From the NCBI GenBank assembly GCA_041304525.1, contig JBFYNF010000045.1, positions 7,479-71,478 on the forward strand: a DNA stretch of 64,000 bases. Reading direction: 5' to 3'. The stretch is from Thermoplasmata archaeon. Its GTDB lineage: Archaea; Thermoplasmatota; Thermoplasmata; UBA10834. The notes beneath the pieces are model-generated. The model was given only the letters and a program-made list of their open reading frames with translations, was not told the DNA's origin and did not search any database. The stretch's first letter is position 1, and each line of letters opens with the position of its first letter. Shown piece by piece: positions 24,159 through 52,776 of the stretch. A program made the position numbers and the translations under genes.

Positions 24159-24166
24159 CTGAATAT

Positions 24167-24178: not shown

Positions 24179-24217
24179 GTTTATGACTTGTCCTCTCGAT
24201 AGTAAGGGCTCGAGAGA

Positions 24218-25181: not shown

Positions 25182-25203
25182 AGACACAAGCCTCTGCGAA
25201 CCC

Positions 25204-25255: not shown

Positions 25256-25284
25256 TAGAGAGCACGGGGAAATGGTGTAAGGAA

Positions 25285-27622: not shown

Positions 27623-27631
27623 GAGGTGGAG

Positions 27632-28072: not shown

Positions 28073-28076
28073 CGGG

Positions 28077-28787: not shown

Positions 28788-28797
28788 GGTCACGGTC

Positions 28798-30429: not shown

Positions 30430-30447
30430 TCCGCGTTTGCTGGCACT

Positions 30448-30485
30448 GATAGTCAGGCCTGAGAATTGGGCGCCAACCCTTATTA
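30448..30485 (+). repeat. 38-nt promoter/operator-like element, copy A (upstream of flaI-2)
   Basis: GATAGTCAGGCCTGAGAATTGGGCGCCAACCCTTATTA matches 34189-34226 at 33 of 38 positions. It ends in a BRE/TATA-like CCAACCCTTATTA. Confidence 0.7.
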
Positions 30486-30608
30486 CTTCAGGTTCTGGAT
30501 TGGCCTTTGAGGCCACCGAGCGCAGGCTCCACAGGGCTACCTCCGCCCAAGGGTGCGGCATTGGCTCTGCTCAGGAGCCGCTTGAGGCGCCTCAGCGGAT
30601 GGGTGAGG

Positions 30609-32258: not shown

Positions 32259-32265
32259 GTCCTCC

Positions 32266-33927
32266 ATGGCTGCGAGCAAGATGAAGCGTCTCTACCAGTC
32301 CCTCGACATGCCCGTTGAGAAGTACTTCACGAGATACGCTCTCCCGCTCGTGATAGCGGGCATCGGCGCGACTGCCCTGCTGGTCTTCCTATTCCCCGAA
32401 CTGGCGGCCGATGGGCTGTTCAAGTATGTGTTCCTGGCAATCCCTGTCCTCTTCTCGGTCGTGGCAGTAATATACCCGATGCTACAGGGTGAACGGAAGA
32501 AGGTCCAGATAGAAAGGAACATGCACCTGTTCCTCGTCAGGATGAGCGTCCTCTCGACATCGAAGCTGCCAAGGAAGAAGATGCTCGAGATCCTTTCGAA
32601 GGTCAAGGAATATGAAGCGCTCAGCCTTGAAATCGAGAAGATCTACAAGCTCATGGAATACTGGAACATGGGTCTCTCGGACGCCGCGAGGACCGTCTCC
32701 CGCAAGACTCCCTCGCCGATGCTAGCAGATTTCCTCGACAGGCTCGCGCACTCATCCGATGCGGGCGAGGACCTCGAGGAGTTCCTCACCAAGGAGCGGG
32801 AGGTGTCCATGAGCGTCTACATCAACAAGTACGAGACGGCGCTCAAGGACCTCGACCTGCTGAACGAGATATTCGTCGCCGTGCTGATATCCCTGATGTT
32901 CATCCTCGTGTTCGTCGCGCTCCTGCCCGTGTTCGTGGACATATCCATCACCCTCATTCTTCCGGGCGTCGCGCTGCTGTTCGTCATCGTCGAGGGGATG
33001 GTGCTGTATCTGGTCAAATCGCTACTTCCATCGGACCCCATATGGCACAACATCAAGGGGCAGACCGAGATCGACAAGGTGATGAAGTCCGTCCTTCCGG
33101 CGACATACGCGGCATGCATCGGGTTCGCCGCCTTCGGGTTCCTGACGGGCTTACCCCTGATGCTCATAGTCGCGCTTGTCGTCACACCGCTCCTGTATCC
33201 AGGGTTCATGATAAGGAGGGAGGAGAAGCGGGTCAGGGCCAGGGACGAGAACTACGATTCGTTCATGAGGGCCGTGGGCAGCTACGCGGCATCTGCTGGC
33301 TCCGCGGTCACGGATGGCGTCGGCAGGCTGAGCAAGCACGACTTCGGGGAGCTCTCGGAAGGCATAGTGATCCTGTACAAGCGCCTGCTCACCCGGATAG
33401 ACCAGATACGCGCCTGGAACCTGTTCGCAGCCGAGAGCGGGAGCAACCTGATCTCCAAGTTCACGGAGATGTATGTCGTCGGTCTGTCCGTGGGCGGGAA
33501 GGTGGACAAGGTCATCGACATCATCAGCGACAACTTCGTGAAGCTGATGGGCGTCAGGCGCAAGAGGTACCAGTCATCCGACAACATGCTGGGGACATTG
33601 TATGGGATGTCCGTCGGCATAACGTTCACCTTGTTCTCCGCGCTGAGCCTGATGCAACTCCTGAACATCATGAACGAGCAGTTCGCGCTCTCCCAGACGA
33701 CGATCAATCTGCCCATCGCGCTGAAGCCATTCGACCTGGGCCTGGCTGAGGCGGTCTTCCTGCTCATCATGCTCGTGCACTCGCTCATATCCGCGAACCT
33801 CGTCTCCTTCGCCGGCGGCAGCCACAAGCATAGTTTCTACATCAACTTCGCAATCATAACATGGATCAGCACCGTGACGGCCATCGTCACACAGTTGATG
33901 CTCGACAAGGTCCTGAACCTCTCATGA
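32266..33927 (+). CDS. flaJ: FlaJ (ArlJ) archaellum membrane platform protein
   Basis: 553-aa polytopic membrane protein with a duplicated T2SS-F-like organisation, directly downstream of flaI. Confidence 0.85.
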   Translation: MAASKMKRLYQSLDMPVEKYFTRYALPLVIAGIGATALLVFLFPELAADGLFKYVFLAIPVLFSVVAVIYPMLQGERKKVQIERNMHLFLVRMSVLSTSKLPRKKMLEILSKVKEYEALSLEIEKIYKLMEYWNMGLSDAARTVSRKTPSPMLADFLDRLAHSSDAGEDLEEFLTKEREVSMSVYINKYETALKDLDLLNEIFVAVLISLMFILVFVALLPVFVDISITLILPGVALLFVIVEGMVLYLVKSLLPSDPIWHNIKGQTEIDKVMKSVLPATYAACIGFAAFGFLTGLPLMLIVALVVTPLLYPGFMIRREEKRVRARDENYDSFMRAVGSYAASAGSAVTDGVGRLSKHDFGELSEGIVILYKRLLTRIDQIRAWNLFAAESGSNLISKFTEMYVVGLSVGGKVDKVIDIISDNFVKLMGVRRKRYQSSDNMLGTLYGMSVGITFTLFSALSLMQLLNIMNEQFALSQTTINLPIALKPFDLGLAEAVFLLIMLVHSLISANLVSFAGGSHKHSFYINFAIITWISTVTAIVTQLMLDKVLNLS

Positions 33928-39281: not shown

Positions 39282-39485
39282 TGGACCCCGGCGACCTCAC
39301 TCGACATCGGCCTTGAGACTCTTCAACGATTGTGCCAATCTTTGATTCTTGTCCCACAAAGCACTACCCCATTCACCTTGGTGACTGATGACAGGAGACT
39401 AACAGGGCACGGAGCGGGACCGTCGAGGACGCCGCCAGACTGGACACGGGCGGCCTCGAATGGAAGACACCAAGGAAGTGAGGAT

Positions 39486-39827
39486 ATGAGGAAGGAGTTC
39501 GAGAGCGAGTTGGCGAGACAGGTATCAGGAAAGAAGAGACTCAGCAGGGCCTGGGTCATGTTGGCACTCTGTGCTGCCATTTTGGTCAGCGGGGCAGCGG
39601 CCGTGACGGCCGTAGCCGCAGGCAATGGAGATCAGCTCCAAACCCAGGACCAGCTCAAGGACGGTTCGTGCGACGACTGCGACGGCGACGGCATCTGCGA
39701 TTACGACCTAGACGGTGACGGTGTCTGTGACAATGATTGCACGTGCGACTGTGACGGCGACGGGATCTGCGACAACGACTCCGATGGAGACGGGGTCTGC
39801 GACTACCAAGAGGATTGCGTCGCCTGA
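39486..39827 (+). CDS. small membrane-anchored Cys/Asp-rich repeat protein (TSP type-3-like DGDGxCD repeats)
   Basis: ATG at 39486 after GGAAGTGAGGA. TM helix AWVMLALCAAILVSGAAAVTAVAA, then four DGDG[IV]CD units in CDDCDGDGICDYDLDGDGVCDNDCTCDCDGDGICDNDSDGDGVCDY. Confidence 0.5.
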   Translation: MRKEFESELARQVSGKKRLSRAWVMLALCAAILVSGAAAVTAVAAGNGDQLQTQDQLKDGSCDDCDGDGICDYDLDGDGVCDNDCTCDCDGDGICDNDSDGDGVCDYQEDCVA

Positions 39828-40267: not shown

Positions 40268-41296
40268 TCAGTAGATACTTCCGCCTGGCTGAGTTGATGC
40301 AAGAACGCCATCGACCGCGCTCAGCGTGTACTCCACCCCTCCGGCCCCCGTCCACGACGCGAGGTCGAATTCTGATGTCATCGTCATCTTGAACACGGAT
40401 ATGCCCGTGAAGGTCAGTGGCGTCTTGGGCTGGCAGACCTCGGGCGCGTGAGTTGTCATGAGGAAGTAGGCAGCGCCTGTCCCGTCGTTGCACGCGTCGA
40501 ACAGGGTCACATCTCCATATTCGTCCACGGCCAACGCGACCTTCTCGTCGATGCCTATGCCCATCGCCACGGAGGCCCATCCATCCTGGACAATGCGCGC
40601 CATGAATGTCACGAGCCGGCCCATCCTATCCCTCGCCACGAAATGGCTGTCGGTGATCTTGTCGTCCATGTTCGGCATGGTGAGGAAGTCCTGCTCAAGG
40701 GTCAACCTCGGGTGATACGGGTTCGTCAGAGCCTCATCCGAGTCGATTGTGTTCCTCTCGGCGGAGAAGGAGAACTCGCCGAGCACCGCGAGGCCCGCAC
40801 TCGTGCCCCCGATCGGCGCGCCCTTGTCGCGCACATAGTGTATCGCATCCTCGACTGGGGTTCCCTTCCACATCCTCACATAATCCCACTGGTTGCCTCC
40901 CGCGATGAAGAGCGCATCGGCGTTGCGGATCTTGTCAAGCACGAAGACGTCGGAGCACGCCTCGTCCTTCAAGAAGATTATGGTCTCGCACGAATCGACG
41001 CCTCCAAGCTGTTTGAATATCCATGGGTTGTAAGCGTCGGTCCCAGAACAACGTATCACTACGAAGTCACCGCCGCCCGATCTCGCAATCATCCACTGCA
41101 TGGCCTCGGCGACGTCCGTGTCCCCGCCTGCTAGAAGCAGACCGGGGGTGGTCACCGTGTCGACGTCGGCGGGGTCCCCGTCTACATAGTACTCATAAGT
41201 CGCCTTCGCACCCGATGCCGACAACGATACCATCGTTGTCGACAGCACCATGATGAAAACCAAAGTCCCTGCTACAGCACGCTTCGCGAGATACAC
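40268..41296 (-). CDS. secreted peptidase S51 family (cyanophycinase/dipeptidase E-like)
   Basis: N-terminal signal, ALFIAGGNQWDY and nucleophile motif GGTSAGLAV. Confidence 0.7.
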   Translation of the reverse strand: MYLAKRAVAGTLVFIMVLSTTMVSLSASGAKATYEYYVDGDPADVDTVTTPGLLLAGGDTDVAEAMQWMIARSGGGDFVVIRCSGTDAYNPWIFKQLGGVDSCETIIFLKDEACSDVFVLDKIRNADALFIAGGNQWDYVRMWKGTPVEDAIHYVRDKGAPIGGTSAGLAVLGEFSFSAERNTIDSDEALTNPYHPRLTLEQDFLTMPNMDDKITDSHFVARDRMGRLVTFMARIVQDGWASVAMGIGIDEKVALAVDEYGDVTLFDACNDGTGAAYFLMTTHAPEVCQPKTPLTFTGISVFKMTMTSEFDLASWTGAGGVEYTLSAVDGVLASTQPGGSIY

Positions 41297-41434: not shown

Positions 41435-41446
41435 CACCTATATATC
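41435..41446 (+). promoter_or_regulatory. TATA-like box upstream of 41496 gene
   Basis: CACCTATATATC lies about 50 nt upstream of the ATG, with RBS AGAGGAG between them. Confidence 0.4.
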
Positions 41447-41495
41447 AGGGGCCGTCATCAGCGTTATGCTTCAATGAGCATATAGAGGAGATACA

Positions 41496-43544
41496 ATGAG
41501 CGAAGACTCCAAAGTGATCAATGAGAACCCCGAATCCGGGACGGAATCCGAAAGCATAAGCCCGCCTAAGAAGACGGGCGTCTCCCCCGCGATGAAGATG
41601 GTTGCATTGGCAGCCGTAGTCATCCTCCTGGTGGCAGTGCCCATGGGGTACTTCATCCTGAGCCAGGACGATGATGAGGAGGCAAACTTCTCGGTCGCGC
41701 TCACCGGCAAGGGCGGAGAGGAGGAGACCGCGGATCTTGCATCGCTCGAGGACATGGACTTCGTAGAGAACATCTCATCGTACCAGAACAGGTTCAACAA
41801 CTGGAATGGCCTGGGGACATATGGTGGCGTTGAGCTCAGGGACCTCGCGGACCTCGTCGGCGGGATGGCCGAAGGGGACGTGATGACAGTGACCGCCTCC
41901 GACGGATACGCCGTCAACCTGTCGTACGAGCAGGTCTACGCAGGCACGGAGTTCCTCGCAGTCCAGGGCCAGATCATCCTCGCATACGAGTTCAATGGAA
42001 GCCTCATGACGGAGGAGGACTGGCCCATGATAGCCGTCCTCGCCCCGGACGAGGCGTTCAGCAACGACGACTTCAACGCGACAGCCCCGGACGCGCCCGA
42101 GTTCGAGATGCTCACTTCGGCAGGGTCGCTCTGGGTCAAGATGGTCTCGAGTATCGAGATCGGCGAGCTGCAGGAACAGGATGTCGTCCTCACGGTCGAT
42201 GGCACAACGACGGTCGACCTCACGATGTACGAGCTGGAGAACCTGGAGTCGCTCACGTCGAACGGCAGCTTCATCAAGTCGACGGGGACTGTCGAAGGAC
42301 CGTTCGAGTTCACCGGCGTGGCTCTGAAGGACCTCGTCGACCTCGTGTACTCGGGCGACGACTACTCAGTCGAGGTGGTCGCCACTGACGGTTACGCCAT
42401 GACCTACAATTACTCGCAGGTCGAGAACGGCACTTTCGAGCAATACGACTCCGCAGGGACATCCCTGGGGTTCGACAACTTCACGATGGTCGTGGCTTAT
42501 GCGCAGGACGGATTACCCCTGGTAGACATGGTCCTGCGCATAGCCATCATTGACGACAGCGAACCGATCACGGACGGCCACTTCTGGGCCAAGTATGTCC
42601 GCACGGTGAATGTGTTGTCACCCGTGCGGGAGTACACACTAGAACTCAACGGCACGACGGTCTACGAGATGGACAGACAGACCTTCGAATCCGTCGCATC
42701 CTGCGACTACCATGCAGCCAGCTGGTCCTTCGAGAACGAAACTGGGACGCACACCTACACAGGCGTCGCCCTTTGGACGCTCGTATCAGCGGTCGACGGC
42801 GCGGACGGACCGGACACTGAGTATCTGTTCAACGACCTGCTCGCCTTCGAGGGATACATTGTGAGGGTCACTGCCGAGGATGGCTACAACAAGGCCTTCA
42901 CATCGATGCAGGTCGCCCGGAACGATACTATCATCGTTGCCAACAAGCTCGACGGCGAGCCGCTGCCGGACGATGAGTGGCCCCTTAAGATCGTCGGCGA
43001 CTGGCTGGCCAGCAACCTGAAGGTCAGCCAGGTTGTGAACATATCCCTCGAGGATCTCCAACCAGTTCCTGACTGGGAACTCACCATCGTCGGCACCGAG
43101 ACGGTGACGATCAGTGCTGAGACCTTCGCGTCGATATACTACTCCGGCCTCCACGGAACATGGTTCAACTACACGAACTACGGCGGATGGCATGCGACGT
43201 ACCACAACTACACCGACGACGAGCTGGTTGACCACACATACGCGGGCATTCCGCTCTGGGTGCTGATCGCAGCCGTCGACGGCGAGGACCTATACCACTA
43301 CGAGTTCAACGACACCCTCGCAGAAGCCGGGTACGATGTGAAGGTCATCGCATCGGACGACTACAACACGACGTTCTCGATAGATGACGTCGCGTACAAC
43401 AACAGCTTCGTCGTCGCGTTCATGCTGGACTGGATGGCCCTGATCGATGACGAGTACCCGCTCAAGCTCACGAGTGAGTACCTGTTCGGGTCACAGAAGA
43501 TCAAGTCCGTAGCAACGATCGAACTGATAGGACTGCCCGCGTGA
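41496..43544 (+). CDS. membrane-anchored secreted protein with four tandem SUOX/YedY-fold-like (Oxidored_molyb-like) domains
   Basis: N-terminal TM helix. Four ~150-aa repeats each carry [YF].GV.L.DL..LV ... V.A.DGY....[SY]..V ... [IL]..[AY]...G..L....WP[LM]K pattern. No conserved catalytic Cys is evident. Confidence 0.55.
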   Translation: MSEDSKVINENPESGTESESISPPKKTGVSPAMKMVALAAVVILLVAVPMGYFILSQDDDEEANFSVALTGKGGEEETADLASLEDMDFVENISSYQNRFNNWNGLGTYGGVELRDLADLVGGMAEGDVMTVTASDGYAVNLSYEQVYAGTEFLAVQGQIILAYEFNGSLMTEEDWPMIAVLAPDEAFSNDDFNATAPDAPEFEMLTSAGSLWVKMVSSIEIGELQEQDVVLTVDGTTTVDLTMYELENLESLTSNGSFIKSTGTVEGPFEFTGVALKDLVDLVYSGDDYSVEVVATDGYAMTYNYSQVENGTFEQYDSAGTSLGFDNFTMVVAYAQDGLPLVDMVLRIAIIDDSEPITDGHFWAKYVRTVNVLSPVREYTLELNGTTVYEMDRQTFESVASCDYHAASWSFENETGTHTYTGVALWTLVSAVDGADGPDTEYLFNDLLAFEGYIVRVTAEDGYNKAFTSMQVARNDTIIVANKLDGEPLPDDEWPLKIVGDWLASNLKVSQVVNISLEDLQPVPDWELTIVGTETVTISAETFASIYYSGLHGTWFNYTNYGGWHATYHNYTDDELVDHTYAGIPLWVLIAAVDGEDLYHYEFNDTLAEAGYDVKVIASDDYNTTFSIDDVAYNNSFVVAFMLDWMALIDDEYPLKLTSEYLFGSQKIKSVATIELIGLPA

Positions 43545-43553: not shown

Positions 43554-45041
43554 ATGGAGATGCGTGAGAAGAGGACTTGGACAGTAATAGCTGTCGCGGC
43601 CAGCGCGGTGGTGATACTGGCTGGCCTAGGCCTTCCCATGCTCCGAGAGAGCGTGGAGGCCGTCGGCGGTGACATACTGTCCCAGACCTCCGACACCCTC
43701 ACGGTCAGGTGCCTGGGACCTGAGATCACGCTCACCCTGAACGGCTTCGAGGGTGAGGTGACCTTCACAAACTGCTTCCCAAACTCCACACTTTCTGGTA
43801 ATGATGACCCGGCCACGATAGATGGGTCGAACATATCCTGCACCGTTCGAGGTCCCGAGACGGAGTTGCGTCTCTCAGCTCAGGTCAAGGAGTCGTTCAG
43901 GTTCGCAGTCATGGGGGACAGTCAAGGGCAGAATGGCATACTCGCGGAAGCACTGGAACGCGTCGACGGATGCGAGTTCATTCTCCACCTCGGAGACATG
44001 ACCCCCTCGGGGCAGCCGTCCGAATTCGACGCCTTCGAATCGACCCTGGGAGCCATCACGATCCCCGTCCTCACCACACCTGGGAACCATGACGTCAAAC
44101 TCGACGGGGGCGATGAGTATACATCCAGGTTCGGGTCCTCGGCGTACAGTTTCGAGTACTCTGGCATAAGGTTCGCATCCGTCGATTCATCGGATCAGGT
44201 GATCGACGAGGGTGAGATTGATTGGCTGAGGGACACTTTCAAGGGGGCCGAAAGGAAGGTCCTGGTCACGCACATGCCAAGCTACGATCCGTTCGGAGAC
44301 AACCACACGCTAGATGCTGCATCTTGTGACAGGATACGGCAGTTCGTCCTCGAAGAGGATGTGGATGCCGTGTTCACTGGTCATATCCACGCATTCCACT
44401 ACATGCAGATGGAGAGCACCGACTTCATCATCACTGGCGGCGCGGGCGGAACCCTGGTAGACGGCGTCCATCACATCATCATCGTGAGCGTTGACGACAC
44501 CGGCTTCTCCTATGAGAAGATCGACCTCGATTACGTCCCACCTACGTCGCCACACGTGCAGGTCATCGGGAAGGATGGCTCGACCCTCAACATCACATAC
44601 GAGGAGCTGATGCTCATGGACCTCGTGGAGAACGACTCGTCATACGAGAACCTGTACGGCAACATCGCCGGACAGGGACACTACAGGGGAGTCCTCGTCC
44701 GGGACCTGCTTGAGCTCGTCGGTGGCATGACCGAGGGAGACCTGCTCACAATCACCGCAATAGATGGATACATCCAAGAGTTCGGGTTCCTGAACGCATG
44801 CCCCGATGCGACATGGCTGAATCTGCAGGGTGAGATGATAGTCTCGGTCGAATTAGACGGGGTGCTGGCGCCCACATGGACTGAGGGCCCACGGATAGCC
44901 ATGCTACCAGAGGATGGCCTGTACAGCAACTCCGACTGCGAACTCACCTCGTACGAAGGGCAGGGATACTCGACGTACGAATCCGCGGGCGCGAGATGGG
45001 TGAAGAACACGTTCACTATCACGGTGGAGGCTGCAGCATGA
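43554..45041 (+). CDS. membrane-anchored secreted metallophosphoesterase with C-terminal SUOX-fold-like domain
   Basis: N-terminal TM. Calcineurin-like motifs VMGDSQG, HLGDMT, GNHD, VTHMP, GHIHAFH. The C-terminal YRGVLVRDLLELVGG...ITAIDGY... matches the repeat of 41496..43544. Confidence 0.7.
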   Translation: MEMREKRTWTVIAVAASAVVILAGLGLPMLRESVEAVGGDILSQTSDTLTVRCLGPEITLTLNGFEGEVTFTNCFPNSTLSGNDDPATIDGSNISCTVRGPETELRLSAQVKESFRFAVMGDSQGQNGILAEALERVDGCEFILHLGDMTPSGQPSEFDAFESTLGAITIPVLTTPGNHDVKLDGGDEYTSRFGSSAYSFEYSGIRFASVDSSDQVIDEGEIDWLRDTFKGAERKVLVTHMPSYDPFGDNHTLDAASCDRIRQFVLEEDVDAVFTGHIHAFHYMQMESTDFIITGGAGGTLVDGVHHIIIVSVDDTGFSYEKIDLDYVPPTSPHVQVIGKDGSTLNITYEELMLMDLVENDSSYENLYGNIAGQGHYRGVLVRDLLELVGGMTEGDLLTITAIDGYIQEFGFLNACPDATWLNLQGEMIVSVELDGVLAPTWTEGPRIAMLPEDGLYSNSDCELTSYEGQGYSTYESAGARWVKNTFTITVEAAA

Positions 45042-46114
45042 GGAAGTACTACTTCTCCACGAAGGACCTCGTGACCATCGCCTTGCTCTCGGCGCTCGGC
45101 GGAGTGCTGTCGACATACATCGGGTACCTCGGCAACATGGTCAACCACATCATCGGCGTTCCGTTCGGGGCGGGCCAGTTCTTGGCCGGACTGCACGTGA
45201 TATGGATCATGCTTGCCCTTGGCATCACGCGTAAGAAGGGGGCGGCCACCGTGACGGGATTCCTGAAGGGAGTGATCGAACTCTTCCTCGGGAGTACGCA
45301 TGGAATCGTCATAGTCATCGTTTCGCTAATCCAGGGATTGATACCAGACATCGTTCTGTTCAGTGACAAGGCCAAGGCGAACAGGAGCCCGATGTTCTAC
45401 GCACTGGCGGGGGGTTTCTCCGCTGCATCCAATGTGATTGTGTTCCAACTGTTCTTCTTCTCTGGCATACCTCTGTACCTCGTCGCGATGCTCTGCATGC
45501 TGGCAGCCGCTTCAGGCATCATCTTCGGAGGATGGCTTGTCCTGGAGATGCTCGAGTCGCTCGAGCTGTCAGGGATGATACTCGGCAAGAGGAGGGTCGT
45601 GGTGGACGACCCGAATGTCGACGAGAGCGTGTGGGTCAAGGGGAAGGCCGAGAAGCGCAAGGCGCTCACGGCGGTGATCGCCGCCACGATCTTCCTGTCA
45701 GCGTTCACGGTCGGCGCCGTATACTACTTCACATTCGTGTTCAAGCTCACAGAGGAAGGAACCATCGAAGTCTCCGGCGCGGTCACGGACCCATACACAT
45801 TCCGATACGAGGACTTCAGCGACACGCAGGTCACAGTCAACGCGGAGCTGATTGGCACCGTGACACACGTCGACCCGAGAAACTATACAGGTATCACTCT
45901 GAATGAAATCGTGAGTGAGGCGGGACCTGATGAAGGAGCCACCGAGGTCGTGGTCACTGGCCGGGACGGTTACTACGCCGTATTCGAGCTGGACGACGTC
46001 GCGGCGGACGACGGACTCATCATAACTCAAGAGGATGAGCTGTTCACGATAGTCGCTGCCAACTACGAAGGGGCATACTGGGTGGAGGATGTCGTGTCGG
46101 TCGAAGTGAGGTAG
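45038..46114 (+). CDS. ECF-transporter S-component-like membrane protein fused to an extracellular SUOX-fold-like domain
   Basis: ATGA overlap with the upstream gene. N-terminal ~190 aa are polytopic (STKDLVTIALLSALGGVLS...), followed by an extra TM helix. The C-terminal ~120 aa read YTGITLNEIVSEAG...VTGRDGYYAVFELDDV. ECF A and T genes follow directly. Confidence 0.55.
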   Translation: MRKYYFSTKDLVTIALLSALGGVLSTYIGYLGNMVNHIIGVPFGAGQFLAGLHVIWIMLALGITRKKGAATVTGFLKGVIELFLGSTHGIVIVIVSLIQGLIPDIVLFSDKAKANRSPMFYALAGGFSAASNVIVFQLFFFSGIPLYLVAMLCMLAAASGIIFGGWLVLEMLESLELSGMILGKRRVVVDDPNVDESVWVKGKAEKRKALTAVIAATIFLSAFTVGAVYYFTFVFKLTEEGTIEVSGAVTDPYTFRYEDFSDTQVTVNAELIGTVTHVDPRNYTGITLNEIVSEAGPDEGATEVVVTGRDGYYAVFELDDVAADDGLIITQEDELFTIVAANYEGAYWVEDVVSVEVR

Positions 46115-47578
46115 ATGCTCGACGTCATGGACCTTTACGTAAGGTACGAGAATAGGTCGAAGCCCGCAGTGGACGGACTCTCACTGCACGTCGACCTAGG
46201 CGAGTTCGTCCTTCTCATGGGCGACTCCGCATCTGGGAAGTCGACAGCCATGCAGGCCGTGTGCGGATTCATCCCCGACATCATACCCGCGGAGAAGAGA
46301 GGTGAGGTGCGGATAGGCGGACAGACGTATGAGGACGCCACTGCAATCTCCAGCGTCGCGTGCATGGTGCAGCAGGACCCTGAGACGCAGTTCTGCACGG
46401 AGACCGTCGAGGAGGAAGTCGCCTTCGGTCCTGAGAACCTGAACGTGCCCAGGGCGGATATCAGGAAGGCCGTGGATGAATCTCTTGCGAGCGTGGGCGC
46501 GTCCCACCTCGTCAGCAGGAAGCTCTCTACGCTCTCTGGGGGTGAGAAGCAGAAGGTCGCGATAGCGTCGATGCTCTCGGTGAGACCTCGGCTCCTCATC
46601 CTCGATGAACCCACATCGAACCTCGACCCGCGATCTGTCTCCGATGTCGTCGGAGTCATAGATGCCCTGAGACGGAGGAAAGAGATGACCATCGTGGTCG
46701 TCGAGCACCGGCCAGGAGGGTTCAAGGACCTCGCCTCGAGAGTCATGGTCATGGACAAGGGGATGCTTGTGCTGGACTGTGGACGGCATGATCCATCTTT
46801 CGCAGAGCGCATCGGGAAGGCCGAGGCGAAGCCTTCGCCACCGATACCCTCCAAGAGCGAACTGGCAGTCGTCTCGGTCAAAGGATTGTCGTACGGAGTC
46901 GATGGCACGAAGATTCTCGATGACGTGACATTCGACCTCAAAGATTGCGCTGTCGTGGCGCTAATGGGGGAGAATGGAGCCGGAAAGACGACACTTCTCA
47001 GACACCTCATGGGGCTGCTGACCCCACAGTCCGGAAGTGTCGACGTGTTAGGACATCCTCAGGACAAGGATGTGAGGACTGAACCTTGGGTCCTCGGGAG
47101 GGAAGTCGGGTTCGTCTTCCAGAATCCGAACCACCAGATCTTCGAGAGGACGGTCGAGAAGGAGATACTCTTCGCCGCGGAGAACTATGACGCACCGAAA
47201 GGCGAGGCACTGAAGGCGGTCGAGGAATTCGAGGCCTCCGAGGAGGTCAGAAAGTTCGTACACCCCCATTGCCTCAGCTTCGGTCAGAAGAGGAGGGTGA
47301 ACATCCGGTCTGCGTCGTCCCACGGCCCCAGGCTGATACTCATGGACGAACCGTTCTCGGGACAAGATGCCGAGAACGCAGAGGCCATCCGAGGGATGAT
47401 AACGAACCTCCAACGAGCGGGCAAGACGGCCGTCGTGGTCACGCACGACATACAGTTCGCGAAAACCTCGTGCACCGATGTCGTATTCATGAGGGCCGGG
47501 AAAATCGTCAGAACTGGTCCTGTGAGCAGCGTGCAGGAAAGCGAATGGGAGGAATTGTTCACCGGGGTGACCAGATGA
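46115..47578 (+). CDS. ecfA: fused duplicated ECF-type ABC ATPase (EcfA-EcfA')
   Basis: Two NBDs: Walker A GDSASGKST and GENGAGKTT, signatures LSGGEKQKV and a degenerate LSFGQKRRV, Walker B LILDEP and LILMDEP. Confidence 0.85.
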   Translation: MLDVMDLYVRYENRSKPAVDGLSLHVDLGEFVLLMGDSASGKSTAMQAVCGFIPDIIPAEKRGEVRIGGQTYEDATAISSVACMVQQDPETQFCTETVEEEVAFGPENLNVPRADIRKAVDESLASVGASHLVSRKLSTLSGGEKQKVAIASMLSVRPRLLILDEPTSNLDPRSVSDVVGVIDALRRRKEMTIVVVEHRPGGFKDLASRVMVMDKGMLVLDCGRHDPSFAERIGKAEAKPSPPIPSKSELAVVSVKGLSYGVDGTKILDDVTFDLKDCAVVALMGENGAGKTTLLRHLMGLLTPQSGSVDVLGHPQDKDVRTEPWVLGREVGFVFQNPNHQIFERTVEKEILFAAENYDAPKGEALKAVEEFEASEEVRKFVHPHCLSFGQKRRVNIRSASSHGPRLILMDEPFSGQDAENAEAIRGMITNLQRAGKTAVVVTHDIQFAKTSCTDVVFMRAGKIVRTGPVSSVQESEWEELFTGVTR

Positions 47579-48333
47579 CGGCAAGACTCCCTGAGGAGGG
47601 CACCCCCAGACTGAACCCCATCACCAAGGCGCTCCTGCTGGTGATGTTCTCCATACTCGTGCTCCTCGTGGTCGACCCGGTCCACATGTCCGCGATCGTG
47701 GTATGCGTGCTCGTAGCCAAAGAGCATTTCCACGCGCGAGGACTCGTCACAAGAGGCATCATTGGATTCGCGATGGCCATCTTCGTGGCGCAGATTCTAT
47801 TCAATCACTCAGGGGATGAGCTCGCGAGCTGGTCCGCATTCTCGGTCACGACAGGTGGCATCTACGATGGTGTGTCTATAGCCGGGAAGTTCCTGAGCTT
47901 GATCATGATGTCATGGGTGTTCGTCGCGACGACCTCACCCTCTGAGCTATCATCCGCCCTCACGACCGCGGGATTCCCCTACAGGTACGCGTTCCTGCCA
48001 GCGCTTTCCATGCGGTTCGTACCGGTGTTCCAGTTCGAGCTAGCCACTGTCAGGGAGGCGCAGGTCACGAGAGGGATGAAACTCGACAGGAGCATCAAGG
48101 GGATTGTGCGGTCCGCGAGGTACACGACCATGCCAATGCTCATGACGGCGATGTCCAGGGTCAACTCCATCACGGCATCCATGACGGGCAGAGGTTTCGG
48201 GATGCACAAGACCAGGACCCAGCTCCAGCCCATAAGGATGACTGCATGGGACCTCGCGTTCCTAGCCAGTTCGGCAGTATTCGTGGCAGTGACCTTCCTG
48301 GTCACAAGATGCCCGGCACTCCAAATCGCCTGA
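47575..48333 (+). CDS. ecfT: ECF transporter T component (CbiQ/EcfT family)
   Basis: ATGA overlap with ecfA. Polytopic, with the ..LSMRFVP....E...V.EAQ..RG motif region typical of EcfT. Confidence 0.8.
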   Translation: MTARLPEEGTPRLNPITKALLLVMFSILVLLVVDPVHMSAIVVCVLVAKEHFHARGLVTRGIIGFAMAIFVAQILFNHSGDELASWSAFSVTTGGIYDGVSIAGKFLSLIMMSWVFVATTSPSELSSALTTAGFPYRYAFLPALSMRFVPVFQFELATVREAQVTRGMKLDRSIKGIVRSARYTTMPMLMTAMSRVNSITASMTGRGFGMHKTRTQLQPIRMTAWDLAFLASSAVFVAVTFLVTRCPALQIA

Positions 48334-49080
48334 TCATCCGACCCTCAGCTCACCGTTCTCGATCCTCGTCGCGTATCGTAGGAGTTCGCTCCCGTTCGAC
48401 CTGAAGGGAGCGTAATGTCTGATGGCGGCCGACACGGTAGCAGCAAGCCCGTCCGTGCGGTTCCGTCCGGAATGGGCCCAGTAACAACTCGTGAAATGCC
48501 TTGCGAAAGAAACCTTCGCCGCGGTGAAGACAGGGTCAGTCATGAGTACACTGGCGCACAACTGTCCCAGGTCGTTGAGTGTGTCTGCGGACGAGGCTTC
48601 CTCGAAGTCGAGGCCGGTGATGCCGGAGGGGGTGATGATGAAGTTCTTGAGGACGGCGTCCCCGCGAGCAAGCTTGAAATCGAATGCGATGTGGAAAGAT
48701 GACATCCATTTGGCCAGGTTGTCCGCGAGTTCTCTTTGCGCCTCGGACAGATCGGCCCCCGAAGAGTGGGAGAACAACTCATCGAAGACCACGGCCGCGG
48801 ATTCGCCCTCAATCGGTTCCATCACGATCGCATCTTCGACCATGGTGACGGGTAGCGGCACGGGGACTCCCTTCTCACGGCACCAGGATAGCACACTGAA
48901 CTCAGCTTGGGCACGCTCCTTCCATTCGTCCCTGAAGACCTTCACGACATATTCCCTTCCGCCGACAGATGTTCTGAACACGCGGTTCTTCTTGCTCTGC
49001 ATGTATGGGCCGATGCGGCCGTTCCCCAAGTCGTGCAATGACATCTTGATACTCATCGTCACTCGCCCACGGATTCCCAA
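48334..49080 (-). CDS. protein-kinase-like fold protein (Bud32/RIO/APH-like, degenerate)
   Basis: N-lobe-like EYVVKVFRD...E..VL......GVPVP...V....IVMEPIEG and C-lobe-like GDAVLKNFII....ITGLDFEEA. The catalytic HxD reads RGD. Confidence 0.45.
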   Translation of the reverse strand: MGIRGRVTMSIKMSLHDLGNGRIGPYMQSKKNRVFRTSVGGREYVVKVFRDEWKERAQAEFSVLSWCREKGVPVPLPVTMVEDAIVMEPIEGESAAVVFDELFSHSSGADLSEAQRELADNLAKWMSSFHIAFDFKLARGDAVLKNFIITPSGITGLDFEEASSADTLNDLGQLCASVLMTDPVFTAAKVSFARHFTSCYWAHSGRNRTDGLAATVSAAIRHYAPFRSNGSELLRYATRIENGELRVG

Positions 49081-49268: not shown

Positions 49269-50555
49269 ATGAGAACGACCTGTTCGAAGAGGATTATAGC
49301 GGCATTGCTGATTGTGACTGCGTTTTCGATGGTGAATGCGTTCGCCGTCGCGAAGCCGGACAGCTTGTTTGATGCGCCGGAAGATACATTGGTCGATGCG
49401 GAATGGACCATAATAGTGTATCTGGCTGCGGACAACAACCTGCAGCTCGCGGCTGTTGGCGACCTTCAGGAGATGGAGGCCGTCGGACCCATGGATGGTA
49501 TCAACGTCGTGGTCCTGATGGACACCATTGACATAACCGAAGGGACGCACTGGTACGCCCTCGGTGATGGCGAGACGCATTTCGATGCGGACGGCGCCCC
49601 GAGCATCTGTGACTGCGACGAGGTCGCAGGCGGCTCTCCTGGCGAACTGAACATGGGTGACCCGGAGACCCTGACCTACTGCCTCAAGACCGCTGTTGCA
49701 TTCGCCCCGGCTGACAACTACATGCTCATCCTTTGGGACCACGGAGGCGGCTGGTGGGGCGTGTGCTATGATGAGGGTTCACTGACGCCCACTGGGAGCA
49801 CGGACAGACTGATAATGGATGAGGTCCAGCAGGGAATCGAAGCATCTGGAGTCGACCTTGACGTCATCGGGTACGACGCGTGCTTCATGGGCATGATTGA
49901 GATAGCCTATGAGAACAGGAACCTGGCCGAGTACATGGTCGCGTCAATCACAACTGTGCCTGGAGATGGCTGGGACTACACGGCCTGGCTGGGTGGAATC
50001 GACGGCACTGACAGGAGCCCGTACGCCGTGAGCGAACTGGCTGCCTCGACATATGTCGATTTCTACACCATATGCATGGGCGTTGGCCTGGGCGGATTCC
50101 CTTACACTAGCATGGGCGTGTTTGACCTCACAACGGTCGAGAACCTCGTAATCAACGGCATAGACCCGGTGGCCGCGGCGCTCGTACCACTGACCGAGGA
50201 GTACTACCTCCGCGGGCCGATAGAGTCCTCGGAATCGCAGACGCCGCAGATACAGTTCCACGGCGAGGCGTTCCCGTTCACTGACATCGGACTGTTCATG
50301 ACACTGCTTGGCGAGAAGATACCAGAACTGAGCGTAGAAACCGCTAAGGCCGTCACACTGCTCGACGATACGATCCTGTGGTTCGACTATGTCGCGCCTG
50401 ACGCAGACATGTGTCTCCGGTCATTCGGGATGTCCATATACTACACCATAAGCGGGGACAAGCTGTACGACAACTACCTCACCAGCAACCTCGACATGGT
50501 GGACGACACGAACTGGGACGAGTTCCTCTGGGCCTTGGCGATGACGGCGGAATAG
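49269..50555 (+). CDS. secreted clostripain-family cysteine peptidase (C11)
   Basis: Signal peptide. IIVYLAADNNL, VVVLMD, catalytic His in LILWDHGGGWWG and catalytic Cys in IGYDACFMG. Confidence 0.8.
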   Translation: MRTTCSKRIIAALLIVTAFSMVNAFAVAKPDSLFDAPEDTLVDAEWTIIVYLAADNNLQLAAVGDLQEMEAVGPMDGINVVVLMDTIDITEGTHWYALGDGETHFDADGAPSICDCDEVAGGSPGELNMGDPETLTYCLKTAVAFAPADNYMLILWDHGGGWWGVCYDEGSLTPTGSTDRLIMDEVQQGIEASGVDLDVIGYDACFMGMIEIAYENRNLAEYMVASITTVPGDGWDYTAWLGGIDGTDRSPYAVSELAASTYVDFYTICMGVGLGGFPYTSMGVFDLTTVENLVINGIDPVAAALVPLTEEYYLRGPIESSESQTPQIQFHGEAFPFTDIGLFMTLLGEKIPELSVETAKAVTLLDDTILWFDYVAPDADMCLRSFGMSIYYTISGDKLYDNYLTSNLDMVDDTNWDEFLWALAMTAE

Positions 50556-51267: not shown

Positions 51268-52776
51268 TCAAGGATACTCTAGTCGTCTCGTATCGAATCC
51301 CTTCGCATACTCCCGGAGCAGAACAGCCATGCCCTTGCTCACCTCAGGCTCGAGCGGCTCGGGTGTATGAGTTTTCAGGAGTTCGTACATACGCTCCTTC
51401 GCACGTTCGTCGGCGCTCTTAGACCCTTTGGCGACCCACTGCTGCCTGGTCGACCTGTCTGATAGCCTGGCCGTATGGTGCTCATTCCTGAACTGCGTCA
51501 GCGTCTCCTTCCTCTTCAGGTAGTTGCCCTGAGGACCAGTCTTGTGGATGACGTCTACCGACAGAGTGCTCTCGTCGACCACGATGCCAGCAGCGATTCT
51601 GTTCACGTTCGAGGCGATTTCGTCATCAATAATCAGCTGAACGGGGGAGAAGGCGTTGAACGCCTCCGTAGAACCCATGAAGAGTTCGGCGAAGTCCGCC
51701 CCGGCCAGAGTGGCCATCAACGCCGCTTGCGTCTTCTCGTACGAAGTCTGAGCGTCAACCATCTTCGAGTCGCTCTGGACACCCATGTCGCTCGGCAGGC
51801 CATAGAACTTAGCGAGTTCGACCGTGCCGACCCCCAAGAGGGAGAACTCGGGCGCACCTGTGGCGGCGATGCCTGACCTCATGTCCAGAGGACATGAGAC
51901 GGACCCGTAGACGACCCTTGGGGATTTCGTGACGCACTTCGCTATCGCTATCGAGCTCAGTATCTCGGCGTTCTGCTGGACGAGCAGACCAGCCAGCGAG
52001 GCGGGCGCTGTCCCCCCTGCGAGCGCCATGACCATGATGAAGACCGGCAGGTCCATCTCCGCATACTTCAGGAGCGTCTCGAGCATGTGCTTGTCGTGCC
52101 CCAGAGGGCTAATCGGGTCGATGTAGCCCGGGAAGAGCGGAGTCTTCCTGAGGAGTTCCCTGTCCCCCAGGAGTAGCTCCGAGACGCGGAGCATGAGCTC
52201 GAACTCGATGCTGTCTCCGCTGCTCCCATAACTCGGCTTGGACGTGTGCATCAGACTCGTGACCCACATGACCATGCTCTGGGCGTCGGTATGGACGTCG
52301 CCCGGATAGACGGGCACATAGCCGACGGTGCATGTGTCCAGGGCGTCCAGGAGCCGGCTTATGAGGATTCCGTCCTTGAGGGTCGACGGCCGATACTCAC
52401 CCGTTTCGGGATCGATGTAGAACAGACACTGCGCCCCAGGGCCGAACTTGGTCCTGCCGTCGACGGCATCCACTGACCGGCTCTTATTTCTTGCATGCCA
52501 TCGGAAGTTGTGGGCGCAACTCTTGACCGCCTCCGCGACAGAAGACTCGGACATGCGCACGATCCTCGACTTCCGATCAACTGAGTAACCGTTGCTCTGA
52601 AGCATGTCGAGCACTTCTGGGGAGTCCACGAACACGCCTGTCTTCTCGAGCACTTCGAGGGTCGCGCCGTGAATCGCCTCCAGATTGGCTCTCCCAAGCA
52701 CCGTGAGCATGTTCTTCCCAGAAACCATGTGTACCTCTGCTCCGCCGATAGTGATGGCGTTGGTTCGGTTGACCAT
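51268..52776 (-). CDS. MttB-superfamily methyltransferase homolog (non-pyrrolysine type)
   Basis: 502-aa uninterrupted ORF with MttB-like sequence (LEAIHGATLEVLEKTGV..., MALAGGTAPASLAG). No in-frame TAG. Confidence 0.8.
   Translation of the reverse strand: MVNRTNAITIGGAEVHMVSGKNMLTVLGRANLEAIHGATLEVLEKTGVFVDSPEVLDMLQSNGYSVDRKSRIVRMSESSVAEAVKSCAHNFRWHARNKSRSVDAVDGRTKFGPGAQCLFYIDPETGEYRPSTLKDGILISRLLDALDTCTVGYVPVYPGDVHTDAQSMVMWVTSLMHTSKPSYGSSGDSIEFELMLRVSELLLGDRELLRKTPLFPGYIDPISPLGHDKHMLETLLKYAEMDLPVFIMVMALAGGTAPASLAGLLVQQNAEILSSIAIAKCVTKSPRVVYGSVSCPLDMRSGIAATGAPEFSLLGVGTVELAKFYGLPSDMGVQSDSKMVDAQTSYEKTQAALMATLAGADFAELFMGSTEAFNAFSPVQLIIDDEIASNVNRIAAGIVVDESTLSVDVIHKTGPQGNYLKRKETLTQFRNEHHTARLSDRSTRQQWVAKGSKSADERAKERMYELLKTHTPEPLEPEVSKGMAVLLREYAKGFDTRRLEYP

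Follow-up and report, generated by a model that had tools for sequence, protein, structure and literature searches.

ECF transporters are textbook importers without an extracellular receptor, in which a small S subunit topples in the membrane to move the substrate. The 64,000-nucleotide stretch of a Thermoplasmata archaeon genome analyzed here (the window) codes for a protein that appears to depart from this design, raising the question of what a tethered outer domain would do for an S component, and which compound such a system would import. A sequence-only reading of the window had described the protein as an S-component-like core extended by an extra transmembrane (TM) helix and an outward-facing C-terminal domain. 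The open reading frame at 45038–46114 (plus strand) is present, with the translation as described before; there is a 4-nt overlap between its start and the stop of the preceding gene, and in length it agrees with homologues of 358 aa.

Organization of the gene cluster

The fused S gene belongs to a module of co-directional genes (Table 1) coding for a repeat protein (REP), a metallophosphoesterase (MPE), the fused S protein, an A-A' ATPase and a T component; a kinase gene, convergent with the T gene and abutting it, follows. The TATA-like box upstream of the REP gene is a candidate archaeal promoter. Searches for Rfam families, including riboswitches, did not reveal any match in the archaeal module region; absence of RF01055 is expected for archaea.

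Table 1. Features of the ECF module and its surroundings (nt positions in the window)
Feature	Position	Strand	Remarks
TATA-like box CTATATATCA (candidate promoter)	41438..41447	+	~50 nt 5' of the first module gene; sequence reading
REP, 682 aa	41496..43544	+	N-terminal TM anchor and four Cys-less SUOX-like copies; PF00174, E 1.2e-15
REP domain copies (approximate)	41679-42140, 42141-42620, 42621-43115, 43116-43541	+	DGY/DDY motifs at aa 136, 298, 462, 621
MPE, 495 aa, predicted membrane-anchored ecto-metallophosphoesterase	43554..45041	+	PF00149, E 9e-18
MPE catalytic domain, aa 115-315	43896-44498	+	
MPE C-terminal SUOX-like domain, aa ~330-495	44541-45038	+	profile, hhalign, all-class alignment
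S-component core, aa 1-177	45038..45568	+	six TM helices, YkoE/PF09819 type
Linker, aa 178-207	45569..45658	+	between TM6 and TM7; cytoplasmic, K/R-rich, low-confidence
TM7, aa 208-236, ALTAVIAATIFLSAFTVGAVYYFTFVF	45659..45745	+	hydropathy peak 2.13
Outward-facing Cys-less truncated SUOX-fold domain, aa 240-358	45755..46111	+	
Fused A-A' ATPase of the ECF module, 487 aa	46115..47578	+	PF00005 twice
T component EcfT/CbiQ, 254 aa	47569..48333	+	PF02361, E 5e-25
Small RIO/Bud32/APH-like kinase, 248 aa	48334..49080	-	PF01636, E 7e-13; PF01163, E 7e-6

The A-A' ATPase scored 332 bits with TIGR04520 (ECF_ATPase_1), which is over the cut-off, and 315 bits with TIGR04521, just under the cut-off of 330. 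For the kinase, a search of PDB sequences gave no match, and a Bud32 identity was rejected because its NCBIfam matches (Bud32, APH) all were far under the cut-offs. In archaea, the kinase gene shows synteny with the module and lies on the opposite strand, while it is co-directional in several Bacillota and in one Asgard locus; it is by synteny alone that the kinase can be linked, putatively, to the module.

The membrane core is a YkoE-type S component

The core matches PF09819 over aa 9–128 with a score well above the gathering cut-off (73.5 vs. 25.2 bits, E 2e-20), whereas the match to TIGR02185 (MptD) reached 26 of the 76 bits required. YkoE, the S component of the group I thiamine transporter YkoEDC (PDB 5EDL), belongs to the same Pfam family and shares the six-helix S fold; it aligns to aa 7–183 of the fused S protein (phmmer E 1e-8), and 5EDL is the top Foldseek match (E 1.9e-6; TM score of 0.76, normalized to the target) of the AlphaFold model of the fused protein, which has an overall pLDDT of 80 and shows six helices in the core. 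As for YkoE, dedicated T and A genes adjoin the S gene, an arrangement which recurs in the relatives and corresponds to a group I organization. By these matches, the gene codes for the S component of an ECF importer of the dedicated type (group I), in line with the sequence-only reading; import itself is predicted. The protein is not, however, a small, purely integral-membrane S protein of about 20–25 kDa: YkoE consists of 197 aa and lacks an extracytoplasmic part, whereas the fused S protein carries about 180 additional residues, which form a linker, a seventh TM helix and an outside domain of 120 aa.

In YkoE, E77 and Q95 bind the pyrimidine moiety, while W49 (stacking) as well as Y46 and D131 (thiazole binding) are specific for thiamine (PMC5037267). 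E77 and Q95 correspond to E81 and Q99 of the fused S protein, and the glycine of the kink (G47) to G51, but W49, Y46 and D131 are replaced by H53, A50 and Q137, respectively, which are invariant or nearly so in the family alignments. Thus, only the Glu and Gln of the full thiamine/hydroxymethylpyrimidine (HMP) residue set of YkoE are retained. Residues kept in at least 95% of 81 sequences include N33, N36, G40–F48 of loop 1, H53, K77, E81, H88, Q99 and D104.

Linker, seventh helix and topology

Downstream of the core, the model shows a disordered linker (residues 178–195) with pLDDT values of 52–58, falling below 50 at residues 185–190, followed by a long helix (196–234) that contains the hydrophobic stretch named in the sequence-only reading, and by a beta-rich domain (242–357). 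G226 and Y230 of TM7 are conserved in the alignment of 81 sequences. The full-length model has a pTM of only 0.60, so that it does not define how domain and core are placed with respect to each other. The orientation of the domain was deduced from the distribution of positive charges: among 42 family members, the mean numbers of Lys and Arg residues in the N-terminus and the even loops are 3.0, 2.9, 3.5 and 7.7, as compared to 0.3, 0 and 0 in the odd loops. The highest value is that of aa 175–212, comprising the linker, the length of which is variable. A second line of support comes from YkoE, which ends in the cytosol (PMC5037267), as does helix 6 of the fused S protein. Both lines favor an outer location of the C-terminal domain behind TM7, as had been proposed.

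The tethered domain resembles a cysteine-less SUOX fold

According to structure prediction and profile matches, the C-terminal domain is an extracytoplasmic, cysteine-less and truncated SUOX fold of the PruR kind. The fold assignment rests on these two lines of evidence because PF00174 scored 20.6 bits on the fused S protein, below the Pfam cut-off of 24; the family is, however, precomputed on many full-length homologues, and bacterial stand-alone neighbors score 26–36 bits. In contrast to the SUOX-family enzymes that contain the molybdenum cofactor (Moco), i.e., SorA, YedY/MsrP, SoxC, sulfite oxidase and nitrate reductase (PF00174), the domain lacks both the Mo-coordinating cysteine on a long beta-hairpin and the dimerization domain. 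The hairpin region, which is the stretch between the two aligned blocks, comprises about 19 aa vs. about 38 aa in SorA. No position of the domain has Cys in more than 5% of 42 mainly archaeal relatives, and no Cys is conserved among all 81 sequences, in which position 243 alone carries Cys (33%). A true Moco enzyme or oxidoreductase was rejected as identity of the domain, given the missing Cys and the plain TM anchors or lipoboxes of the carrier proteins; as no twin-arginine motif was seen by eye in the latter, export with a pre-inserted cofactor is not expected.

PruR, a periplasmic pterin binder of Proteobacteria (PDB 7KOS, 7RKB, 7KP2), is a Cys-less SUOX fold which contacts the pterin via N102, Y104 and W160 and has a PW motif (PMC11194511). 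The tethered domain shares with PruR the small size, the lack of Cys in its SUOX fold, the truncated hairpin and the location outside the cytoplasm; sequence identity to PruR amounts to 14–17%, and no PW motif was seen. When a bacterial stand-alone SUOX lipoprotein was used to search the PDB, neither PruR nor YedY was aligned. While PruR is a soluble signaling protein paired with the cyclase DcpA, the tethered domain is part of a transporter; a DcpA-type GGDEF/EAL protein, as in a PruR-type operon, is absent here, the neighbors being ECF components, the phosphoesterase and the kinase.

Conserved residues of the tethered domain are G247, F255, A269-E270-L271, G273, Y283-T284-G285, P297, D310-G311-Y312, F316, G345 and W348. 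D310-G311-Y312 and W348 are invariant, and most domain classes have these D-G-Y and W motifs, which recur in S-fused and stand-alone copies as well as in those of REP and MPE. The A-E-L motif with E270 is specific to the S-fused copies. D310, Y312 and W348 could be pterin contacts similar to those of PruR; alternatively, they could stabilize the fold.

The sequence-only reading had claimed homology of the C-terminal domain to the neighboring secreted proteins. At the level of profiles this homology is real, albeit distant: the domain profile matches four stretches of REP with an E value of 3e-16 and MPE with 2e-4, the corresponding hhalign values being 8e-5 and 6e-4, and stand-alone bacterial homologues bridge all domain classes. 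Pairwise BLASTP agrees with the profile search for REP but is weak (E 1e-3 and 0.2), so that profile methods and bridging sequences were required. Some bacterial operons code for the same fold as a free lipoprotein of 184–186 aa directly 5' of the S gene, which parallels, by analogy, a substrate-binding protein (SBP), and multi-repeat proteins contain up to 18 domain copies. The ligand-binding nature of the fold fits a capture role. We infer that the tethered domain may capture the substrate and hand it over to the core; alternatively, it could dock accessory proteins.

Surface-anchored partner proteins

The gene of REP is syntenic in almost all relatives. The closest solved sequences to MPE are GpdQ-like and purple-acid-phosphatase-like. 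Its metal ligands D122, D148, N178, H179, H240, H277 and H279 are conserved among 57 orthologues, with Q124 at the position of the DxH motif; the catalytic residues thus appear intact, and activity is predicted. The N-terminus of MPE (MEMREKR) is followed by a hydrophobic helix, which implies that the catalytic domain is outside.

Distribution of the module and association with riboswitches

The fusion goes far beyond chance: a search for it in other genomes, as suggested by the sequence-only reading, revealed its conservation in no fewer than 235 species genomes. A module of the order REP – MPE – fused S – A-A – T, in most cases accompanied by the small kinase, recurs in Thermoplasmata, Asgard archaea and anaerobic Bacillota, and linker, TM7 and domain are all conserved across the fused homologues. 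A possible split form is a TM-anchored domain protein of 181 aa (P0124), encoded on a short contig of 1.4 kb; most other short homologues are pieces of the fused protein. An assembly or frameshift artefact joining the S gene to that of a downstream anchored protein has next to nothing in its favor beyond the unusual length; we consider it practically refuted by the hundreds of homologues of 343–372 aa from independent assemblies, which include complete chromosomes and a cultured isolate.

At the bacterial orthologue loci, RF01055 riboswitches scored 55–78 bits (cut-off, 36). They are located directly 5' of the module at L057, L060, L066, L072, L079 and L085/L086, the last being from the cultured Thermovorax subterraneus, whereas at L064 and L070 they precede operons which also contain genes for TupA-like binding proteins and the molybdate transporter MOT1. 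Stem P3 is absent in all of the 11 aligned riboswitches; Moco riboswitches without P3 are the type associated with the tungsten cofactor Tuco (PMC2408646). However, iron transporters and enzymes are under Tuco riboswitches, too (PMC11725836), so that membership in the regulon does not identify the substrate. In three Bacillota loci the module adjoins tungstate or molybdate transporter genes, and a search of all loci and the window for homologues of TupA, TupB, MOT1 and DUF364 found them at L064, L070 and L071 only. At the archaeal loci, neither a riboswitch nor adjacent W/Mo genes were found, and the flanking genes at the Asgard loci and at some bacterial loci gave no functional clue. The host of the module described here encodes the tungstopterin enzyme AOR. 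From YkoE, the fused-S module differs in that it is, in bacteria, under a Tuco-type Moco riboswitch and has the ecto-phosphoesterase and the repeat protein as partners.

Relation to other import systems

The statement of the sequence-only reading that ECF systems are defined by the absence of extracytoplasmic binding proteins was overstated, since the Ni/Co transporters NikKMLQO are ECF-type systems with the additional, partly extracytoplasmic components NikK and NikL (PMC2667541). Like the fused-S module, they are ECF importers with components beyond S, T and A; NikK and NikL, however, are separate polypeptides of another fold, serve a metal cation as substrate and are not covalently fused to S. 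As to the proposed hybrid between the ECF and the SBP-dependent designs, it holds as an analogy, in which the free upstream lipoprotein parallels an SBP, but not as ancestry, because the outside domain does not have the SBP fold of type I/II importers and the membrane machinery is purely ECF (S and T with A-A).

Possible function of the module

Three features missing from the sequence-only reading are together the most telling with respect to function: the phosphoesterase, the kinase, and the connection to the regulon of the Mo/W cofactor. The explanation which we favor, albeit tentatively and at somewhat less than even confidence, is that the fused-S module serves Mo/W-cofactor economy, most likely scavenging a pyranopterin- or pterin-type compound such as molybdopterin, a Tuco/Moco derivative or a precursor from an anoxic environment. 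The SUOX-like domains would bind the pterin moiety and concentrate the compound at the surface, MPE would remove a phosphate or nucleotide outside, and the tethered domain would pass the product to the pocket of the S core, where the Glu and Gln may hold an aminopyrimidine as in YkoE. The core would topple on T, driven by A-A, with the long linker allowing TM7 to stay upright, and the kinase would re-phosphorylate the compound after import. The Tuco-type riboswitches, AOR in the host, the intact residues of MPE, and the retention of E81 and Q99 while the thiamine-specific residues are replaced are consistent with scavenging. A sequence of ecto-phosphoesterase, transporter and kinase is the classical logic of vitamin salvage: in the NadN-PnuC-NadR route for NAD and nicotinamide riboside, dephosphorylation occurs outside (NadN being a metallophosphoesterase), the uncharged core is imported, and re-phosphorylation takes place inside. 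The outside/inside logic is the same, but that route involves another transporter class and substrate, and its extracellular parts share no binding domain. The lability of molybdopterin argues against scavenging; moreover, we know of no molybdopterin kinase, and to our knowledge no prokaryotic Moco importer, bacterial or archaeal, has been described. Nematodes do take up bacterial Moco.

An ECF-type importer of tungstate or molybdate (or a thio-oxyanion), in which the SUOX-like domains bind the oxyanion and the S core translocates it, would account for the Tuco-type riboswitch and for the interleaved genes of TupA-like binding proteins, TupBC-like proteins and MOT1. SUOX active sites accommodate oxyanions, phosphate-bound 6y0k is among the structure matches, metallophosphoesterases bind tungstate as a phosphate analog, and the invariant H53, K77, E81, H88 and D104 of the S core might be put to such use. 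We nevertheless regard this explanation as unlikely, as it leaves the intact phosphoesterase and the syntenic kinase without a role and would be redundant with the Tup and MOT1 systems at the same loci. The tethered domain also lacks the Mo-binding Cys and Moco, which form the core of the SUOX oxyanion pocket, the YkoE-type pocket retains its aminopyrimidine-binding residues, and no oxyanion-transporting ECF system is known to us. Slightly less probable still is a function of the domain as a docking or assembly module, uniting REP, MPE and S by homotypic SUOX-like contacts while the substrate directly enters the S core. Occurrence of the same domain on three co-operonic proteins, the S-specific A-E-L motif, as for a specialized interface, and the undefined domain placement in the model (pTM 0.60) would suit docking. 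The fold, however, is a ligand-binding one, which in its minimal form without Cys serves PruR to bind pterins, the D-G-Y/W motifs are conserved across the classes including the free lipoproteins, and up to 18 copies per protein suggest avidity for a ligand. Docking and scavenging are mutually compatible.

An ordinary YkoE-type importer of thiamine or HMP, for which TPP or HMP-P would be dephosphorylated outside and re-phosphorylated inside, is what the name given to relatives by JGI implies ([quoted passage not shown]). YkoE is indeed the best PDB match, with E77 and Q95 conserved, and the kinase matches the APH family (PF01636), to the superfamily of which the thiamine kinase ThiK belongs. 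The exchange of all three thiamine-specific residues, the Moco/Tuco riboswitches of the bacterial operons and the failure to find a TPP riboswitch in bacterial and Asgard loci totaling about 305 kb make this explanation quite improbable, and it does not explain why three proteins carry a domain with a Moco-enzyme fold.

Implications

A conserved S subunit to which a seventh helix and an outside domain are attached, as found in hundreds of genomes, puts the generality of the toppling mechanism to the test, and shows that receptor-like modules with a fold other than that of SBPs were recruited by ECF systems. The names under which these proteins are currently annotated ("thiamin/HMP permease", "cobalt transport", "molybdopterin-dependent oxidoreductase") should be treated with caution. 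The link to Tuco-type riboswitches offers an explanation for the "sulfite oxidase" exceptions noted in 2008 behind such riboswitches in Syntrophomonas wolfei, and is an experimentally tractable lead to the question whether Mo/W pterin cofactors or their precursors are taken up by prokaryotes and shared among them. A literature search found no relevant report of an ECF fusion linked to a Moco riboswitch, tungsten or molybdopterin. It is conceivable, though we would rather doubt it at present, that the module is the first prokaryotic uptake and salvage system for the pyranopterin (molybdopterin/tungstopterin) family or its precursors, comprising capture, stripping, ECF import and a new kinase. 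If so, cross-feeding of Mo/W cofactors would take place in anoxic communities that comprise Thermoplasmata, Asgard archaea and syntrophic Bacillota.

Architecture and topology of the S component

Translation of the S component gene yields a protein of 358 residues, as the sequence-only reading had described. A longer ATG start at 44996 is unlikely, because with the start at 45038 the gene shares 4 nt with the end of the upstream gene, and the nearest homologues likewise have 358 residues and begin with MRKYYFST. Residues 9–128 match PF09819 (E 2e-20; 73.5 bits, Pfam cut-off 25.2), and residues 7–183 align with YkoE, a thiamine-binding S component that is the sole solved member of PF09819 (5EDL; E 1e-8 in a sequence search of the PDB). 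The AlphaFold2 model (42 homologues, pLDDT 80) comprises six helices, a low-confidence stretch (178–195), a long helix (196–234) and a beta-rich domain (242–357); the extra transmembrane helix proposed from the sequence lies within the long helix. In a Foldseek search with the membrane part, 5EDL was the top match (E 1.9e-6; target-normalized TM 0.76). Sequence, fold and operon all assign the protein to the PF09819/YkoE family of S components, so the proposed character of its core is borne out. However, it lacks two usual attributes of that family, being neither a small, purely membrane protein nor equipped with the thiamine site. E81 and Q99 in the core cavity correspond in the alignment to the Glu and Gln with which YkoE binds the aminopyrimidine moiety of thiamine; the thiamine-specific residues Trp49, Tyr46 and Asp131 of YkoE are replaced in the fused family by invariant His53, Ala50 and Gln137.

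The orientation of the C-terminal domain was deduced from two independent arguments, the positive-inside rule and the known topology of YkoE. Among 42 family members, the mean number of K+R is 3.0 in the N-terminus, 2.9 in loop 2, 3.5 in loop 4 and 7.7 in the TM6-TM7 linker, as against 0.3, 0 and 0 in loops 1, 3 and 5; the first 25 residues past TM7 contain one K/R versus six D/E. YkoE has six TM helices, with its C-terminal helix directed to the cytosol (PMC5037267), so that one more TM helix would place the additional domain outside. The two lines are concordant with the outward orientation proposed earlier, and the domain thus appears to be extracytoplasmic. The bulk of REP, an anchored four-repeat protein, and of MPE, a metallophosphoesterase, should also be located outside, because a short, positively charged N-terminus precedes a single hydrophobic helix in each sequence.

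Identity of the C-terminal domain

Pfam reports a sub-threshold match (E 3.7e-4) of the C-terminal domain to PF00174, the molybdopterin-binding domain of the sulfite oxidase (SUOX) family, which is also present in the precomputed annotation of many full-length homologues. In the PDB, a profile of 24 such domains matched SorA, a sulfite dehydrogenase (E 1.5e-4), with the motifs Y-x-G-[IV]-P-L, D-G and G-x-Y-W-V in common. The comparison with solved structures lists 15.1 for SorA (2blf), 14.0 for YedY (1xdq), 13.4 for SoxC (2xts), 12.9 for nitrate reductase (2bii), and 12.4 and 11.0 for PruR (7rkb and 7kp2). The fold is that of the SUOX family, but the Cys that defines its enzymes is absent: no position has Cys in more than 5% of 42 relatives, most of them archaeal, and in the set of 81 sequences Cys recurs at position 243 only (33%). 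According to the SorA alignment, the hairpin which bears the Mo-ligating Cys in the enzymes is about half as long. Carriers of the SUOX-like domain have plain anchors or lipoboxes, and no twin-arginine motif was seen in them by eye, so that loading with molybdenum cofactor in the cytoplasm is impossible. For these three reasons, the C-terminal domain is not an enzyme domain.

Most alike in design is PruR, a periplasmic pterin-binding protein which differs from SUOX enzymes by the missing Cys, a truncated hairpin, a shorter cleft, and binding of the pterin between Tyr and Trp (PMC11194511). Both PruR and the C-terminal domain are Cys-less with a shortened hairpin, but they are not orthologues, sharing 14–17% identity, and no DcpA partner is encoded at the module. 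In 81 sequences representing three phyla, D310-G311-Y312 and W348 are kept at a frequency of 95% or more; D310, Y312 and W348 are candidate counterparts of PruR N102, Y104 and W160.

The proposed homology to the neighboring proteins, weak by pairwise BLASTP, holds at the superfamily level (identity up to about 30%). The domain profile matched REP in four stretches (E 3e-16) and the MPE C-terminus (E 2e-4), with hhalign values of 8e-5 and 6e-4, respectively. Bridging is provided by stand-alone bacterial homologues, which pass the PF00174 threshold (26–36 bits) and match archaeal repeat proteins with values as low as 1e-19 and S-fused domains at about 1e-5. When all classes are aligned, D-G-Y occurs in nearly all copies (D-D-Y in one repeat), W-V in every copy except two REP repeats, and A-E-L in S-fused copies only. 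The family comprises 923 representative clusters, in which the domain is fused to S, stands alone, or occurs in up to 18 repeats.

Distribution and gene order

The protein search retrieved 596 relatives, the best 120 of which have 341–414 residues, nearly all 343–372. The same fusion is present in at least 235 genomes (scan with one genome per species); among the best 80 matches, nearly all span about residue 2 to 352–358, one on a truncated contig ending at 325. These 80 derive from Thermoplasmata, Asgard archaea (Heimdall-, Hermod- and Promethearchaeota) and Bacillota (Syntrophomonadaceae, Pelotomaculum, Syntrophaceticus and others). A search from a Syntrophomonas member added 424 relatives, including one from cultured Thermovorax subterraneus. 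An assembly artefact as source of the fusion was excluded. All carriers identified are anaerobes or stem from anoxic habitats, which would suit an oxygen-labile substrate.

Among a total of 83 loci, those of Thermoplasmata almost always have the order REP, MPE, fused S, A-A (fused ATPase) and T, followed by a small kinase in convergent orientation; bacteria and Asgards usually have MPE-S-AA-T, often with REP and kinase. A free SUOX-like protein of about 186 residues is encoded directly upstream of S in nine bacterial loci; the one copy inspected (L071) has a lipobox. In several Bacillota, A-A-T apparently forms one polypeptide of 774–904 residues. The 181-residue product of a separate ORF on a short contig (L084), in which a single TM helix joins a short cytoplasmic head to a SUOX-like domain, could represent the fusion in split form, the contig being too short to reveal an upstream S core.

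MPE retains the dinuclear-site residues D122, D148, N178, H179, H240, H277 and H279 and is similar to GpdQ and purple acid phosphatases. In its first motif, Gln replaces His of DxH: G-D-x-Q-G occurs in 50 of 57 sequences (MPE and 56 orthologues), with all other metal ligands retained, so that the active site, as judged from the alignment, is an unusual variant. The kinase, a remote RIO/Bud32/APH relative, travels with the module across archaea and Bacillota. No close characterized homologue and no PDB sequence match was found, and we know of no KEOPS Bud32 from bacteria; the protein may represent a new family of small-molecule kinases.

Features of the window and of homologous loci
Locus	Feature	Coordinates	Strand	Remarks
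Window	SBP_bac_5 protein	2693–6601	+	1302 aa
Window	Aldehyde:ferredoxin oxidoreductase (AOR)	11603–13570	+	AFOR_N E 1e-74; AFOR_C E 4e-123
Window	Archaellum cluster	22366–33927	+	
Window	DGDG[IV]CD-repeat protein	39330–39827	+	165 aa
Window	S51 peptidase	40268–41296	-	
Window	REP	41496–43544	+	682 aa
Window	MPE	43554–45041	+	495 aa
Window	Fused S	45038–46114	+	358 aa
Window	A-A	46115–47578	+	
Window	T (EcfT/CbiQ)	47569–48333	+	
Window	Kinase	48334–49080	-	convergent with module
Window	C11 peptidase	49269–50555	+	
Window	MttB-family protein	51268–52776	-	E 5e-84
L070	Kinase	11470–12162		co-directional with module
L071	Kinase	4432–5157		co-directional with module
L073	Kinase	12192–12869		co-directional with module
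L075	Kinase	5545–6345		co-directional with module
L082	Kinase	11426–12283		co-directional with module
L072	A-A-T fusion	9202–11808		Pfam confirmed
L085	A-A-T fusion	10117–12498		Pfam confirmed
L065	A-A-T fusion (candidate)	3006–5720		ORF length alone
L073	A-A-T fusion (candidate)	9083–11407		ORF length alone
L084 (JGI 3300009528)	TM-anchored SUOX-like protein	64–609		181 aa
L085 (GCA_021608145.1)	Two further SUOX-domain proteins	146–4174		upstream of module
L057, L060, L066, L072, L079	RF01055			immediately 5' of bacterial module
L085/L086 (Thermovorax)	RF01055			immediately 5' of module
L070	RF01055			then two TupA-like binding proteins, S, AA, T, kinase
L070	RF01055, second copy			precedes REP
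L064	RF01055			then TupA/B/C-like genes, MOT1 molybdate transporter, one small ORF, MPE, S, AA, T
L071	RF01055			on adjacent tupAB-like operon
NC_008346.1	Swo-1-6	about 2,527,762–2,528,175		PMC2408646 supplement
NC_008346.1	Swo-1-12	about 2,249,088–2,249,503		PMC2408646 supplement

Riboswitches and the tungsten link

Bacterial modules are associated with Moco/Tuco riboswitches (RF01055; 55–78 bits, Rfam cut-off 36). The P3 stem is absent from all 11 aligned aptamers; this variant has been associated with tungsten-cofactor metabolism, and two RNAs of this type from Syntrophomonas wolfei, located 5' of "SO_family_Moco" genes, were listed in 2008 as unexplained exceptions (Regulski et al., PMC2408646). 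Plausibly, these genes code for Cys-less SUOX-like surface proteins of the ECF module kind. Rfam detected no riboswitch in the archaeal window; its AOR, a tungstopterin enzyme, implies that the host needs the W cofactor. In Eubacterium limosum, iron transporters and enzymes are likewise under Tuco riboswitch control (PMC11725836); the regulon therefore connects the module with the W-cofactor economy but does not identify its substrate.

The two further SUOX-domain surface proteins encoded upstream of the riboswitch-controlled module of T. subterraneus carry Big_2, Fn3_assoc and Cu_amine_oxidN1 domains. Between them lie a DUF2149 gene and a MotA/ExbB-like gene, an arrangement that hints at an energized surface-uptake step.

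Other genes of the window

The module is flanked by a cyanophycinase-like S51 peptidase with N-terminal anchor, syntenic in the closest relatives (L007–L010), and a secreted clostripain-like C11 peptidase, syntenic in L004. An anchored protein with an Asp/Cys-rich tail of DGDG[IV]CD repeats has no Pfam match and is possibly a surface peptide that binds Ca or metals. The archaellum cluster encodes two archaellin-domain proteins, FlaC/D/E, two T2SSE ATPases and a FlaJ-like T2SSF protein. Another gene, followed by two ABC permease genes, encodes a tethered solute-binding protein of very large size, in which an Opp/Dpp-type binding domain is combined with PKD domains. The MttB-family methyltransferase gene is a single ORF without in-frame stop at the expected pyrrolysine codon; its product is probably a non-Pyl member of the superfamily.

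Possible function of the module

Given the established architecture, fold, conserved module and riboswitch association, and the outside location deduced for the domain, SUOX-like domains might bind a molybdopterin- or Tuco-type compound, or a precursor, through its pterin moiety, MPE would strip phosphate or nucleotide, and the tethered domain would raise the local concentration at the S-core cavity or hand over to it; the kinase could re-phosphorylate the imported compound inside the cell. Toppling on the T component is the movement proposed for ECF S components (PMC5037267), and an outside domain anchored by TM7 would impede it; the disordered, K/R-rich TM6-TM7 linker of 30–35 residues could supply slack, with TM7 staying upright.

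Public annotation names the protein "ECF transporter S component", "thiamin/HMP permease" or "molybdopterin-dependent oxidoreductase". Transport of thiamine or HMP is opposed by the changed binding residues and by the module loci, where no TPP riboswitch was found and Moco/Tuco riboswitches occur instead. Uptake of tungstate or molybdate would agree with the regulon and the gene neighborhood, but leaves the phosphoesterase and the kinase without a role. The C-terminal domain might also serve purely for docking, which is compatible with pterin capture. There is a real but less than even chance that the module is the first prokaryotic pterin-cofactor salvage transporter.

We know of no S component with a covalently fused outside domain, and the literature searched contained none. 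NikKMLQO likewise has accessory extracytoplasmic parts (PMC2667541), whereas here the outside domain is covalently joined to S. Overall, the observation made in the sequence-only reading stands, and its interpretation as a hybrid of ECF and binding-protein-dependent designs is only partly supported. The fusion elaborates the ECF design in a form that is conserved, widespread and so far undescribed, and it offers a concrete, testable link to tungsten/molybdenum cofactor acquisition, in which the substrate would be a cofactor-type compound.
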